This document shows, one piece after another, positions 4,334 through 52,140 of a stretch of 64,000 nucleotides of DNA. A model generated the notes under the pieces. That model worked only from the letters and a program-made list of their open reading frames with translations, searched no databases and was not told where the DNA came from. Source of the stretch: Alphaproteobacteria bacterium (lineage in GTDB: Bacteria > Pseudomonadota > Alphaproteobacteria > CAAHEQ01 > UBA3637); assembly GCA_045638265.1 (NCBI GenBank), contig JAZUBA010000051.1, forward strand, positions 30,194 through 94,193. Direction: 5' to 3'. Position numbers and translations under genes: made by a program. Position 1 is the stretch's first letter. The number at the start of each line of letters is the position of its first letter.

Positions 4334-4361
4334 TTGCAATTAAAGGTACGTTAAATTGCAA
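4334..4361. promoter_or_regulatory. Distal copy of the conserved near-palindromic 28-bp module (TTGCAATTAAAGGTACGTTAAATTGCAA)
   Basis: Near-perfect palindrome. Same module recurs at 4475, 29710, 29841, 51910, 52047, 52113. Adjacent conserved A-rich block gtgaaaaaaaaatgcaaaaa at 4363..4403. Confidence 0.6.
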
Positions 4362-4474
4362 CACTTTTTTTCATATTTTTGCATTTTTTTTTCACTTCTT
4401 ATGATTTTAATATATCGGCTTGTTCAAAATATTTCTCCCGATTCGTCTCTTTTTTGCCCTTGTATGTGAAATCG

Positions 4475-4502
4475 TTGCACATAAACGTACCTTTAATTAC
4501 AA
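4475..4502 (+). promoter_or_regulatory. Promoter/operator module for the pilin-like gene at 4542: -35 TTGCAC, 17-bp spacer ATAAACGTACCTTTAAT, -10 TACAAT
   Basis: Sigma70-like hexamers with exact 17-bp spacing, ending 40 bp upstream of the ATG. The spacer sequence is conserved across all family promoters, which suggests a regulator site inside the promoter. Confidence 0.65.
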
Positions 4503-4541
4503 TGTGGTTATGCTGTATTTATTAGACAATTTGGAGGTATT

Positions 4542-7529
4542 ATGAGATTTAGAACGCATATTAAACAAAACGAACGTGGTCGCTCAATGGTTGAAATCTT
4601 AGGCGTTTTAGCCATTATCGGTGTTTTATCATTCGGTGGTATTCAAGGATACAAGTATGCCATGGATAAACATCGGGCAAATGATATCGTCAATGAGGTT
4701 AATATGCGTGCAACAGATATTTGGCATTTATACCAAGATGGTGAAAAAGAATTGCCTGATTCACCTGAAGCAGATGCATTTCCTGAATATCCTGAAATGA
4801 CGCAAACAGGATTTGAAATTCTGGTAACATCCCATCCTCCTGTTGCATTTCGTACATGGGTGAATAATGTACCGTCTGCTGTATGTCAAAAAGTGTTACA
4901 GGAAAATTTAGACGATGCCGTTCAAGGATTAAAATTTGTACAGGTTGATAATGGTGGTGGATTAATACGCTATACAGGTGATATTGCTATTTGTGGTGAA
5001 AGTGGTACGGAAAATCAGATGGTATTTACATCGTTTCTTGATGAAGATGGTGGAGCTGTTGCCTCTCCTGTTAATCCTGATAATCCAAACACACCGTTAA
5101 TTTATTGTGTAGAACAAGATGATTGCCCGCAAGAATGTGGTGGGGCTGTATGTGAAGAAGATACCATGACATGTCGTGATGCTTGTGCAGGTACGGATAA
5201 ACCGATTTGTATGCGAGAAACTGGAACGTGTGTTGAATGTCAAACAAATGATGATTGTGCGATAGTTGGTGACAACTATGTTTGTAATACGGCAGACTAT
5301 ACATGTCAGGAAGTGCGAAAATGCGTAACGGGAGAATATCGGGCTAAAAGTGGTGCATGTATTCCGTGTGATGATATTAATGCTGTTGAAATCAGTCAAG
5401 AAAAGTTTTTCGACCTAACGTTGAATATTGAAGATGATACAACAGGTGTAGAACAATGTAATGCGTGCAACAATACGCATACAGTAACTGTTGATGAAGC
5501 AACGGGAACAACGTATTGCGGTGTTGGATGCATTAAAGGTGTAACGTATGAATCACTTAATGATGGATGTATCCCTTGTCGTAAAGCCGATGGTTCTTTA
5601 AATACGGAACCACATCGGATTAATCAAAATAATAATGCTCGAAGTATGTGTGAAGCTTGTGGTTTGATTTGGTGGAATAATTATTATTTGCAGAATACAT
5701 GTGGTTATTTTCCTACGTGTGAAAAAGGAACTTTTTTGTCTGTCGGTAGTAATCCGACCTGTGTTGATTGTAATTCTAATACTCAATATCGTGTTTCTGG
5801 ATGGGAAGGTGGCGGATATACACCATATTTTGGGTCAAGTAGTTGGAGTTCAGAAAAAATTAATGCAATATGTACTGACAATTGTCGCGATGAAAACGGT
5901 AATCCGACGCGAGAATTAGGTTCTGGTGCATTATGTAAGCCACTCTGTCAACAACCTGATGAAGATGCTTCTATTACAGCTTGTACGGATAAAGATGATT
6001 CAACCGTTTGTAATCGTCAATTCCGAAGTGGCGGAGTATGTTATGCGTGTAGTACATCAACAAGTAAATCTATTGCGACAGGAGGGACTGAGGAAATTGA
6101 TACTTATGAAGAACAAGTTTGTGTTAATTGTGGTAGAACGGTTAAAAACGGATATTGTATTATTGAAAAAGAACCTCAATTAGGGCAATTTAGGGGTAAA
6201 GACGGCAATTTATATAATTGCACGGTTAACGGAGCAGATATTGTTTCTGAAGAAGATTCTGGCTGCATAGCAAATTGTCGTCAGAAAAACGGTAAATATA
6301 GTATGGATGCAGATGCAACACCAATTCGTTGGATTCATACTTATTCAGACGGTAGTCAAAAATGTTTTAAAACATGCCCATCAAATAAATGGCAAAGTAC
6401 GGCAGGTATGTGTATGGATTGTTCACAAGATAATGGAACATATGCAACGTATTATAATATACGATTAAACGCGGATACTTGTGAAAAAGCTTGTCAAAAC
6501 ACGGATTATCCTCGTGAAAATCTTAATGGTTATTGTGTGTTACAGACTTGTCCAAATGATACGGATGGTATGGTAAAATACAGAGGAACCATGGGAGATT
6601 GTCTCCGATGTGATTATACCGGTCAGCCTGATAGGGGTGTTTCCTCAAACTCAATGATAACATCGGCTCAATGTGCCAGATGTAATAATCGAGTAGCAGT
6701 GAGAACTTGGGATTCTTGGGCTGTTTGTGCTTTAATTAATCCAGGTAGTAGTGGTGTTTGTAACAGTAAAAATGTTCAACTTCCTGAAAATATGCCGACA
6801 GAATTAAAAGCCAAAGTTCAGCCATATGTTAACGGAGATTATGATGGTCAAATGTTCCGTGATAATTCTGGGTATTGTCATGAATGTACAACATCTGCTG
6901 CACCAAGTACTTCTGCAGAGCAATGTAATATGTGCAATATTGATAAAATGCAACGTACTTATACAAACGGTGTTTGCTCGTTAGGTGGTTGTCAAACAGA
7001 CGAATTTATGAATAATACCCCAAATTGTGTCAAATGTAAGCCATCCACTGAACCGAGTTCTTATATTTCATCAACATATCAATTAAAAGCAGGTCATACA
7101 TCTTCTTGTACACAATGTGGTAATCGTCAGATTATGACAATCGGTTCAACAGGTTTGCAATATTGCGTACCGAATGATTGTATTCAAAATGCTGATTGGC
7201 AATCCGTTGCGAATGGTAAATGTCAAGATTGTACGGCAGATAATAATGTGCGTGAAATCGGTACGGAACTTGTTTATCGTCAACTGTGTGAAGCTTGTAA
7301 TCGTGTTGCATTTAGTAAGAAAAATGGTGATAATGTCAGTTGGTATTGTTCAAAAATTGTAAATGACGGTTATTTTGTTGATGCTTCTGGTGCGATACAA
7401 AGTTGTTCTTCGGCATCAGATACGATGATACCTAATACGTCAAAAGCCATTTCAGCTTGTGAAGCGGCCTCTTGCAATAGGGTCACAGAAACAGACAGAG
7501 ATGGTCAAGTTTGGTGTATGAAAAATTAA
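4542..7529 (+). CDS. Type IV pilin-like N-terminus fused to a 940-aa cysteine-rich extracellular region (giant pilin-like protein, family member 1)
   Basis: MRFRTHIKQNERG|RSMVEILGVLAIIGVLSFGGIQGYKYAM: Gly(-1), Glu(+5), ~20-aa hydrophobic helix, Tyr about +24/+27, as in class III (prepilin) signals. GGAGG SD. Remainder has ~130 Cys in CxxC / C-x-C patterns. Paralogous N-terminus to 52175 and to the fragment at 51594. Confidence 0.7.
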   Translation: MRFRTHIKQNERGRSMVEILGVLAIIGVLSFGGIQGYKYAMDKHRANDIVNEVNMRATDIWHLYQDGEKELPDSPEADAFPEYPEMTQTGFEILVTSHPPVAFRTWVNNVPSAVCQKVLQENLDDAVQGLKFVQVDNGGGLIRYTGDIAICGESGTENQMVFTSFLDEDGGAVASPVNPDNPNTPLIYCVEQDDCPQECGGAVCEEDTMTCRDACAGTDKPICMRETGTCVECQTNDDCAIVGDNYVCNTADYTCQEVRKCVTGEYRAKSGACIPCDDINAVEISQEKFFDLTLNIEDDTTGVEQCNACNNTHTVTVDEATGTTYCGVGCIKGVTYESLNDGCIPCRKADGSLNTEPHRINQNNNARSMCEACGLIWWNNYYLQNTCGYFPTCEKGTFLSVGSNPTCVDCNSNTQYRVSGWEGGGYTPYFGSSSWSSEKINAICTDNCRDENGNPTRELGSGALCKPLCQQPDEDASITACTDKDDSTVCNRQFRSGGVCYACSTSTSKSIATGGTEEIDTYEEQVCVNCGRTVKNGYCIIEKEPQLGQFRGKDGNLYNCTVNGADIVSEEDSGCIANCRQKNGKYSMDADATPIRWIHTYSDGSQKCFKTCPSNKWQSTAGMCMDCSQDNGTYATYYNIRLNADTCEKACQNTDYPRENLNGYCVLQTCPNDTDGMVKYRGTMGDCLRCDYTGQPDRGVSSNSMITSAQCARCNNRVAVRTWDSWAVCALINPGSSGVCNSKNVQLPENMPTELKAKVQPYVNGDYDGQMFRDNSGYCHECTTSAAPSTSAEQCNMCNIDKMQRTYTNGVCSLGGCQTDEFMNNTPNCVKCKPSTEPSSYISSTYQLKAGHTSSCTQCGNRQIMTIGSTGLQYCVPNDCIQNADWQSVANGKCQDCTADNNVREIGTELVYRQLCEACNRVAFSKKNGDNVSWYCSKIVNDGYFVDASGAIQSCSSASDTMIPNTSKAISACEAASCNRVTETDRDGQVWCMKN

Positions 7530-7590
7530 AAACAAATAAAAAAGAGGGCTTTTGCTCTCTTTTTGTTTTTATCGCAATATAAAAAATTCC

Positions 7591-7625
7591 CCTGACAAAG
7601 GAAAAAATGTCAGGGATGATTTTGT
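7591..7625. terminator. Bidirectional rho-independent terminator between the pilin-like gene (+) and mnmE (-)
   Basis: Perfect 8-bp stem ccctgaca/tgtcaggg with A-run upstream and T-run downstream. A second weaker hairpin lies at 7538..7570. Confidence 0.55.
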
Positions 7626-7642
7626 TTTAAAAATGATGTTTT

Positions 7643-51593: not shown

Positions 51594-51874
51594 TTATATC
51601 ATAAGCACAGCGAGTTGTGCATTAAGTAAATTGAGTTCATTAATGACTTCATTTGAATGATATTTGTTCATGGCATACCGATAACCTTGCACCCCACCAA
51701 TAGATAAAACACCAATAACAGCCAATATACCGAGCATTTCAGTCATTGAGCGATCGTGTTCTTGCGGATTGGTGCATCGGGTTGTGATTCGGTTTTTTGC
51801 AAATCGGATACAACCTTGTTTTTTGTTTTATCAGATATTACTAATTGATTTTGTTTGTATTTTTTCTTTGACAT
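51594..51874 (-). pseudogene. Truncated/frameshifted pilin-like gene copy (inverted partial duplicate of the family 5' end)
   Basis: Frame A: ATG 51874 -> MSKKKYKQNQLVISDKTKNKVVSDLQKTESQPDAPIRKNTIAQ* (stop 51743). Frame B (open from 51594, no upstream start): ...PQEHD RSMTEMLGILAVIGVLSIGGVQGYRYAMNKYHSNEVINELNLLNAQLAVLMI*. Frame B is homologous to the first ~50 mature residues of the 4542/52175 proteins, but with Asp in place of the -1 Gly. Own promoter module 36 bp upstream with a perfect TATAAT. Confidence 0.45.
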
Positions 51875-51909
51875 ATAAGATCCTTATGTGAAAGATGAAT
51901 CTACAATCA

Positions 51910-51937
51910 TTATAATTAAAGGTACGTTTATATGCAA
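51910..51937 (-). promoter_or_regulatory. Promoter/operator module for the small pilin-like ORF (minus-strand reading: -35 TTGCAT, spacer ATAAACGTACCTTTAAT, -10 TATAAT)
   Basis: Exact 17-bp spacing. Consensus -10. Ends 36 bp upstream of ATG 51874. Confidence 0.6.
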
Positions 51938-52046
51938 CGATTTCGCAGATAAGAGACAAAATAGGAGAAAATAAGGACATATTACAAACAAGCCAATGCT
52001 TACAATTCATAAAAATCAAAAAAAATGCATAAAAGTGAAAAAAGTT

Positions 52047-52074
52047 GTTGCAATTTAACGTACGTTTAAATACC
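52047..52074. promoter_or_regulatory. Middle copy of the conserved 28-bp module (TTGCAATTTAACGTACGTTTAAATACCT); poor -10, likely an operator/distal site
   Basis: Preceded by conserved AAATGCATAAAAGTGAAAAAAGTTGT (52021..52046), as at 29818..29840. Confidence 0.5.
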
Positions 52075-52112
52075 TCTTTTTGGACAAAATTTTAAAAAAA
52101 CAAAAATAAGTA

Positions 52113-52140
52113 TTGCAAATAAAGGGACGTTTTGTTACAA
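52113..52140 (+). promoter_or_regulatory. Promoter/operator module for 52175..54469 (-35 TTGCAA, spacer ATAAAGGGACGTTTTGT, -10 TACAAT)
   Basis: Ends 34 bp upstream of the ATG. Confidence 0.6.

Follow-up and report, generated by a model that had tools for sequence, protein, structure and literature searches.

Candidate inversion switches upstream of giant pilin-like protein genes in an uncultured alphaproteobacterium

Dispersed small invertible promoters control surface-structure genes of Bacteroides fragilis and are turned by the master serine invertase Mpi and by Tsr-type invertases (PMC4747536, PMC5903667). The mpl (P35) genes of Mycoplasma penetrans are believed to have one invertible promoter each, next to the gene, and to be switched independently of one another (PMC2268961). 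Inversion of a promoter or of pilin-gene DNA is described for Campylobacter fetus sap and for Moraxella pilin with Piv (PMC5903667, PMC11868660). The hix site is 26 bp long and forms a short imperfect palindrome that is bound by a recombinase dimer (PMC3798978). In this work, a 28/29-bp near-palindrome was analyzed, seven copies of which lie in a 64,000-nucleotide stretch of an uncultured alphaproteobacterial genome (assembly GCA_045638265.1, contig JAZUBA010000051.1, positions 30,194 to 94,193 of the forward strand; hereafter the window). The element is probably the crossover site of small inversion switches (invertons) placed upstream of genes for pilin-like surface proteins.

Exchange by Hin and Gin takes place at the central dinucleotide of the site, which has to match between partners. 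The fimS element of Escherichia coli measures 314 bp, has 9-bp repeats, carries a complete promoter inside and is served by adjacent tyrosine recombinases. Set beside such systems, the unusual points of the loci studied here would be a crossover inside the promoter spacer, a fixed -10, a mobile -35/UP half, reciprocal use by divergent genes and a cassette of ~130 bp.

Paired elements and inverted segments

All seven copies, starting at 4334, 4475, 29710, 29841, 51910, 52048 and 52113, fall in three control regions upstream of pilin-like genes. They were found at or within 1 bp of the positions listed in the original prediction, which had been made from the letters of the window and had placed the sixth copy at 52047. 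Searching with a degenerate 29-mer at up to 3 mismatches yielded 8 strand-hits at seven places, against 0.00 expected from 100 dinucleotide-preserving shuffles, and the 12-bp core WAASGKMCSTTW was matched exactly 7 times in the window against 0.26 expected. With a weight matrix built from the copies, the seven sites scored 30-44 bits and the rest of the 64 kb 12 bits or less.

Extending the search to related loci (designated by L numbers; 115 kb together with the window) gave 26 strong sites of 27-41 bits, tabulated from the window, L002, L003, L020, L013, L021, L022, L024, L025 and L027. All of them lie in modules upstream of family genes, and no stray copy outside such modules was found in the 115 kb. 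The genome-wide motif search proposed earlier, run with exact IUPAC patterns against GTDB species genomes, JGI metagenomes and IMG/VR (collections without the source genome and its close relatives), returned chance matches only (Halanaerobium and others), with neither a -10 nor a family gene. No Rfam match was obtained anywhere in the window. Upstream of the distant pilin homolog loci L014-L019 no such element was found, and the module therefore appears restricted to a narrow clade.

Each site is laid out as an inner half of 13 bp, a centre of 2 bp and an outer half of 13 bp, i.e. two imperfect inverted half-sites (2 x 13 + 2 bp), in line with serine-invertase crossover sites, which have a length of about 26-28 bp and half-sites of 12-13 bp. 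The half-site consensus TTGCAAWTAAASG is followed by the centre and by its own reverse complement; over the 26 sites the consensus reads TTGCAAATAAACG TA CCTTTAATTACAA, with an information content that is symmetric around the centre. This conservation of the spacer lies far above the needs of RNA polymerase, and the element must be recognized by a two-fold symmetric, sequence-specific protein. The earlier argument that the spacer is conserved beyond what sigma70 needs, and that a symmetric protein is required, thus held up: better palindromes are kept at sites that no gene follows (4334 in the window, and L002, L003, L020, L024, L025 and L027).

The copies pair up in inverted orientation, 131-141 bp from centre to centre, with three pairs in the window (4334/4475, 29710/29841 and 51910/52048; spacings among them 131, 138 and 141 bp) and eight in the relatives. 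Following alignment of the three window regions with two orthologous loci, the copies were seen to be the two ends of one conserved asymmetric module. In order, this module comprises a gene (-), a 5' untranslated region (UTR) of ~35 bp, a -10, site 'B' and CGATTTCAC, and then ~80 bp of poorly conserved DNA, AAAAAAAATGCAAAAAAGTGAAAAAAAGTG and site 'A', followed either by a -10 and a gene or by nothing. At the A end of the inner segment three phased A-tracts, ~10 bp apart and UP-element-like, adjoin TTGCAA; at the other end CGAAATCG adjoins TTGCAA. Every pair has the A-tract block beside one inner half and (G)AAATCG or GATTCG beside the other. The same asymmetric module occurs in the three window regions and in L002, L003/L004/L020, L021, L022, L024, L025 and L027. 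Conservation across modules covers the site, the A-tract block and the CGAAATCG flank, but neither the 5'UTRs nor the central part of the segment.

Two independent assemblies, ENA ERZ28633552 (L024) and ENA ERZ27298998 (L027), carry an ortholog of the window gene at 52175 (MKKSFKINELGRSMVEIL...) and were aligned with this gene at the right. The left flank is identical at 62/62 positions, through the centre of the distal site, and the right flank, which runs from the proximal site centre and takes in the -10, the UTR and 5' coding DNA, at 103/110 positions. Between the flanks, the inner segment of 128 bp is identical (122/129) only when reverse-complemented, against 72/132 in the same orientation, mostly contributed by the palindromic ends. 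In L024 the A-tract block adjoins the TTGCAA of the gene; in L027 this place is taken by CCCCCGAAATCG, and the A-tracts face the gene-less half-site. One end of the demonstrated inversion is the ortholog, in L024/L027, of the window site at 52113. Homology also breaks at a site centre between the window and L024.

A second case was obtained from another module of L027 (module 2, sites 520-547 and 657-684, gene P0007; also present in L028), which matches region 1 of the window (4334/4475). The gene side is collinear (84/113 identical), and the inner segment is identical at 115/142 positions only in reverse complement, against 60/141 in the same orientation. In the window, the marker half-site TTGCACATAAACG and its CGAAATCG flank lie next to the gene and the marker half-site TTGCAATTTAACG with its A-tracts lies at the distal end; in L027 the two are exchanged. 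The inner segment of L002 has the orientation of the window (110/141).

As read from these alignments, at least two inversions of the segment between the element centres have taken place, and their breakpoints fall within the elements. Because the inner segment stands in both orientations against fixed flanks at two loci, the elements are best explained as recombination sites, not operators. The breakpoints can be placed only within ~15 bp common to the partner sites. This shared repeat is shorter than assembler k-mers, so that a mis-oriented assembly is unlikely, and two independent loci are inverted. Contigs with family genes (L002, L003, L004, L020, L022-L028) are mostly short or end inside a gene or module, as would be expected if assemblies break where DNA is repeated or heterogeneous.

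The centre dinucleotide, read from the inner to the outer half, is identical in both partners of 11/11 pairs, being TA/TA in most pairs, TC/TC in L003, L020 and L022 and GA/GA in L024 and L027; such a match is what a recombinase with a 2-bp stagger demands. The S positions beside the centre often differ between partners, and the stretch that is obligatorily shared amounts to only 2-4 bp. Serine recombinases use an overlap of 2 bp and tyrosine recombinases one of 6-8 bp. Matching centres with differing neighbors consequently fit the serine overlap better than the tyrosine overlap, and a serine invertase is probably the best fit to the site architecture.

The original prediction had proposed a repressor or a sigma-like factor that would co-regulate the family. 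In the operator model, a dimeric transcription factor would bind all family promoters and repress or activate them, the distal site and the bend of the A-tracts would serve looping, and the inversions would be rare evolutionary accidents at short inverted repeats. Such a model agrees with the position of the site, whose centre at about -21.5 within a sigma70-like promoter would let a bound protein block RNA polymerase, with the conservation and better palindromes of the gene-less copies, with phased A-tracts that would help a loop of 131-141 bp and with the presence of XRE and S24/CI-like regulator genes in the window. It does not predict inner segments inverted with breakpoints inside the sites at two loci, matching centre dinucleotides in every pair, or an asymmetric inner segment conserved beside a gene-less site, and spacings of 131, 138 and 141 bp hold no constant helical phase. 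The two regulators named as candidate binders, XRE (18405..19394) and CI-like (24119..24787), have no motif above 12 bits upstream and nothing links either of them to the element; a cognate autoregulated regulator was not found in the window. With both segment orientations at two loci, which is the signature of a recombination site, the repressor reading is neither needed nor supported, and the operator model is considered unlikely. It is compatible with the inverton model in one respect, as a recombinase bound to the spacer would also repress.

Another explanation is a divergent promoter cassette that was spread by duplication or gene conversion and is inverted by host recombination or template switching, no dedicated recombinase being involved (as in C. 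fetus sap). The exchange could then involve either the short inverted repeats or the longer cassettes of inverted 5' coding sequence. Such arms exist: a 225-nt inverted repeat, 92% complementary, connects 29375-29599 with 29998-30222 in the 5' coding regions of the window pair 25796..29674 (-) and 29911..39015 (+), and the divergent partners in L021 (770-1200) and L022 (1-300) have almost the same sequence outward of the site centre, over the -10, the 5'UTR and ~55 codons, beyond which they are unrelated; their inner halves differ. The latter pattern points to concerted evolution or exchange of 5' cassettes, and the 225-nt repeat could support a second, homology-driven inversion of the control region with parts coding for the leader, similar to C. 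fetus sap. That no recombinase was found locally also fits a cassette. However, the breakpoints lie within ~15 bp of shared sequence at the sites and not in the long homologous arms, and homology of ~15 bp is too short for RecA-dependent exchange. Moreover, the gene-less partner sites lack coding homology altogether, and neutral inverted repeats would not be expected to show anything near the conservation of the 28-bp site across lineages. Host recombination of this kind is therefore held to be improbable as the source of the inversions, and site-specific recombination at the element is preferred.

Control regions and promoter halves

The features of the control regions are as follows, with coordinates in the window; promoters are putative.

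4334..4361 (-): region 1 distal site; outer half TTGCAATTAAAGG, facing no gene and without a -10; inner half TTGCAATTTAACG; centre TA at 4347-4348
4349..4487 (between centres): region 1 invertible inner segment, in opposite orientation relative to the gene in L027/L028
4362..4395 (-): phased A-tract block (UP-element-like), adjoining the -35-like TTGCAA of the distal site and pointing away from 4542
4466..4474 (+): conserved 'B'-end flank GTGAAATCG
4475..4503 (+): region 1 gene-proximal site and promoter; -35 TTGCAC in the invertible inner half; centre TA at 4488-4489
4498-4503 (+): -10 TACAAT of gene 4542, in the fixed outer half
4542..7529 (+): pilin-like family gene, 995 amino acids (aa); prepilin-type N-terminus GRSMVEILGVLA, then Cys-rich repeats
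25796..29674 (-): pilin-like family gene, 1292 aa, region 2, 'B' side
29709..29737 (-): region 2 left site and promoter of 25796..29674; -10 TACAAT (minus strand) at 29709-29714; centre TA at 29723-29724
29738-29746: following the region 2 left inner half TTGCAAATAAAGG, the flank CGATTTCAC
29725..29853: region 2 predicted invertible segment, by homology of architecture; A-tract block at ~29804-29840 adjoining the promoter of the 3034-aa gene
29841..29869 (+): region 2 right site and promoter of 29911..39015; -35 TTGCAA; centre TA at 29854-29855; -10 TACAAT at 29864-29869
29911..39015 (+): pilin-like family gene, 3034 aa, region 2, 'A' side
51594..51874 (-): frameshifted 5' family fragment, consisting only of a 43-aa leader open reading frame (ORF) and a 50-aa N-terminal helix ORF
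51909..51937 (-): region 3 left site and promoter facing the fragment; -10 TATAAT; centre TA at 51923-51924; followed by CGATTTCGC at 51938-51946
51925..52060: region 3 predicted invertible segment; A-tract block at ~52018-52047
52048..52076 (+): region 3 second site; inner half TTGCAATTTAACG; centre TA at 52061-52062; outer half TACCTC, without a -10
52113..52141 (+): site and promoter of 52175; centre GA at 52126-52127; no GA-centred partner in the window
52175..54469 (+): pilin-like family gene, 764 aa

The gene-proximal copies read TTGCA(A/C/T), 17 bp and TACAAT or TATAAT, end 33-41 bp before the ATG and are followed by a gene with a ribosome-binding site. They look like sigma70-type promoters, in agreement with the earlier assignment of -35 and -10. 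This assignment does not extend to every copy: 52048 has TACCTC and no -10, and 4334 faces no gene and carries the outer hexamer TGCAAT, which is not a -10. Going through the table of 26 sites, a -10-like hexamer (TAYAMT) was read on 17/17 outer halves that face a gene and on 0/9 gene-less ones. The variants before family genes are TACAAT, TATAAT and TACACT; the nine gene-less outer halves read TGCAAT, TGCAAC, TGCAGA, TGCATT or TACCTC. This all-or-none correlation between gene and -10 is the best available support for the -10 assignment, and transcription would start after this hexamer. Lacking a -10, the gene-less sites appear to be kept as binding sites and not as promoters. Between orthologous loci, gene-less sites and A-tract blocks are ~90% conserved, against only 60-84% identity of the proteins and no conservation of the UTRs and of the DNA in between, so that these sites are under selection without being promoters. 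A homolog of the distal site 4334..4361 is retained in L002, L025 and L027.

Of the promoter-like parts, the invertible DNA includes just the -35-like hexamer and the A-tract block; the -10-like hexamer belongs to the flank on the side of the gene, an arrangement consistent with a split promoter. Taking TTGCAA as the -35, the A-tracts occupy about -39 to -66, the position at which an UP element sits. The A-rich blocks had been described earlier as extra boxes; they occupy ~29804-29840 and ~52018-52047, with a reverse-complemented block at 4362-4395, and represent one end of the invertible segment. In the lineage of L003/L020/L022 the inner half without A-tracts reads CGGGAA and lacks a -35, so that orientation would decide whether a promoter is present.

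In the present state of the window, the A-tracts of region 1 are directed away from gene 4542, and those of region 2 face the 3034-aa gene and not the 1292-aa gene. These two divergent genes are separated by 236 bp (29675-29910), and not by the 410-bp control region given originally. In region 3 the A-tracts face the site without a -10 and the opposite end faces the gene fragment 51594..51874, which has kept its own site and TATAAT -10 and looks like a relic of recombination within the family.

Compared with L024 160-177, the window has 66 extra bp at 52044-52112, bounded by the direct repeats AAGTTGTTGCAA and AAGTATTGCAA and described as AAGTnTTGCAA repeats. This insertion creates the 52048 site without a -10 and parts the A-tract block from the promoter at 52113. 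Together with a GA centre that has no partner, the insertion makes the 52175 switch look rearranged, and possibly locked, in this genome.

The fixed distance to the genes also bears on a mobile origin of the module. Neisseria Correia elements have a similar size, terminal inverted repeats and outward promoter-like ends. Units of 161-171 bp with terminal inverted repeats and outward promoter-like ends resemble them, and a miniature inverted-repeat transposable element (MITE) or Correia-like element could be imagined as a ~165-bp unit, with 28-bp terminal inverted repeats and outward promoters, that inserted upstream of the genes. Against insertion of this kind, 13/13 modules are directly upstream of a pilin-like gene or remnant at a fixed 33-41 bp from the ATG, no copy stands in another context in the 115 kb, pattern scans of the collections gave chance matches only, and target-site duplications are not evident. 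A mobile element is accordingly very improbable, and a crossover site remains the preferred reading of the 28-bp element.

Several other candidates were rejected or found no support. A sigma54 promoter was discarded by direct reading of the sequence, as the GG-GC spacing is one base too long and the gene-proximal copies have no GC. A CtrA box (TTAA-N7-TTAA) does not serve as a general explanation, since only the TTTAAC variants fit, a spacing of N8 being found in the others, and since the element has dyad symmetry. For slipped-strand phase variation in the A-tracts there was no support, as the block aligns gap-free across modules, its length and phase being conserved. A small RNA starting from the gene-less 4334 site was rejected in view of its outer hexamer TGCAAT; in L002 the terminator of the upstream gene is ~35 bp away.

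Some further module variants were observed. A weakly conserved AAACAAGCC-like motif occurs near the middle of the otherwise variable inner segment (window ~4415-4430, ~29770-29790 and ~51990-52005; L027 ~600-615) and might be a site for an accessory protein or an enhancer. L027 304-685 contains two full modules back to back, 57 bp apart, with the gene-less outer halves facing each other and the family genes pointing outward. L013 97-125 holds a promoter unit, TTTAACATAAACGTACCTTTAATTACAAT, in which core and -10 are perfectly conserved and the inner end is not TTGCAA; it has neither A-tract nor CGAAATCG flank, and the gene behind it is broken into ORFs of 117 aa and 42 aa.

Proposed switch and the pilin-like gene family

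Under the inverton model, a recombinase dimer would bind each 28-bp site and the two sites of a module would synapse, a step in which the phased A-tracts may help to bend the short loop of 131-141 bp. Exchange at the site centre would invert the inner segment and form two hybrid sites. As the crossover would lie in the middle of the 17-bp spacer, the fixed -10 would be joined to one of two alternative -35/upstream halves: either the A-tracts with TTGCAA, or CGAAATCG with TTGCAA (or, in the sister lineage, no -35). Between divergent genes, inversion would take the A-tract/UP-like half away from one gene and give it to its partner; with a gene on one side only, the switch would be high/low or ON/OFF. 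The A-tract half would be expected to give the higher expression. From the layout of the sites and their matching centres, inversion would be performed by a dedicated recombinase encoded outside the window, probably a serine invertase, and switching would presumably be frequent enough for phase variation. Most likely, the modules serve this uncultured gut alphaproteobacterium as phase-variation switches of its giant pilin-like surface proteins.

A more far-reaching version is advanced tentatively, as slightly less likely than not. It holds that the modules make up a dispersed split-promoter inverton regulon under one master recombinase. This enzyme, probably a serine invertase, would cut halfway along the spacer and drive either a reciprocal toggle of the strong promoter half between head-to-head paralogs or an ON/OFF switch beside a gene-less 'parking' half-site. 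If true, this would be an undescribed phase-variation architecture, and the first for this uncultured gut alphaproteobacterial lineage.

A number of observations weigh against switching as proposed here. Both orientations were seen between different assemblies and, among the assembled contigs, never within one sample, and a few inversions fixed in evolution would look no different from rapid switching. At the 4542-type locus, one orientation is common to the window, L002, L025, L003, L004 and L020, with only L027/L028 differing. For region 2, which holds the largest genes, a phmmer search with the first 210 aa of the 3034-aa protein gave no ortholog (E<=1e-10). The window lineage has a good -35 at both ends of the inner segment, so that a difference in expression rests wholly on the putative effect of the UP element. 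Finally, Resolvase, Phage_integrase and Piv-like domains were not found in the scanned window ORFs (Pfam/NCBIfam) or in the gene tables of the related loci; master invertases that act at a distance are known (PMC4747536).

The genes behind the modules have in common a prepilin-type N-terminus (GRSMVEMLGVLA...) as well as a ~170-aa N-terminal domain, after which come very large Cys-rich repeats. In the 1292-aa member (25796..29674) these repeats match Ephrin_rec_like (PF07699) with E = 1e-18; the other family members gave no Pfam family match. Homologs of the N-terminal domain were obtained from ENA, JGI and NCBI metagenome assemblies, the named ones being metagenome-assembled genomes of 'Alphaproteobacteria bacterium'.

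The window has a G+C content of ~35%, and housekeeping genes read by eye include queA, mnmE, engB, yidC, mutY and clpB. It encodes many repeat, ankyrin-like and mTERF-like proteins, among the last an array of four paralogs, as well as Sel1-like proteins. Long tandem-repeat proteins are encoded at 15908-18391 (-), 59098-61353 (-) and 46549-51451 (+), with the units EEPAVTFExLPDDMPT and IADDQLSVINDFDEEP and acidic repeats of ~50 aa. Such effector-like content suggests a host-associated lifestyle. The XRE protein (18405-19394, -) has two tandem HTH_3 domains and weak NCBIfam matches, including Wolbachia Wmk, and the S24-peptidase regulator (24119-24787, +) matches best the ECH_1013 (Ehrlichia) family; both give hints of Rickettsiales-like affinities.

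If the inverton model is true, uncultured host-associated Alphaproteobacteria vary giant Cys-rich pilin-like proteins by DNA inversion, and inverton phase variation would be extended to a lineage and a protein family without an earlier description. The inverted repeats are short (13-15 bp identical) and imperfect, so that repeat-based inverton finders may miss the class. The definition by site and cargo could be used to hunt for the recombinase and would offer a compact natural design of recombinase-addressable promoter halves.

Comparison with known systems

With B. fragilis, the loci described here share many small segments in a gut bacterium, short related inverted repeats and a recombinase that need not adjoin them. 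They differ in that the whole promoter is invertible in B. fragilis, whereas here the -10 is fixed and only the -35/upstream half moves; moreover, the switch often lies between divergent paralogs, the host is alphaproteobacterial and the site sequence is unrelated by the tests run. The Mpi repeat consensus may be ARACGTWCGT, which resembles the core AAACGTACST. Like mpl of M. penetrans, the present genes form a variable surface-protein multigene family over several loci. Phylum, proteins and repeats are different, the invertible promoter of mpl is complete, and mpl has neither reciprocal divergent switching nor a split between -35 and -10.

In size and layout, with 28 bp, AT-rich inner positions and an outer hexamer, the element is like Hin/hix, Gin/gix and res site I; this is a resemblance, not a test. 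Hin inverts ~1 kb and needs a Fis-bound enhancer, in contrast to the ~130 bp inverted here, where the site doubles as promoter core. Similar to fimS of E. coli, an ON/OFF fimbrial switch inverted by FimB/FimE, the modules with a gene-less side represent a short invertible element upstream of an adhesin or pilus gene. As in C. fetus sap, oppositely oriented paralogs with conserved 5' regions surround a promoter-bearing segment. In the sap and Piv systems, one promoter is moved or coding segments are exchanged over distances of kilobases; unlike these, each gene here keeps its own -10 and the breakpoints lie in 28-bp sites, not in coding repeats.

Phage-type operators (Cro/CI, XRE) likewise have a two-fold symmetric core of 16-18 bp over a promoter, comparable to ATTAAAGG-TA-CCTTTAAT, but inversions, matching centres and asymmetric cargo are unexplained by operators. 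For an invertible UP element no precedent was encountered in the literature search, which is weak negative evidence. Taken together, the systems closest in function are the invertible promoters of B. fragilis and mpl of M. penetrans, and the closest in site layout is Hin/hix.

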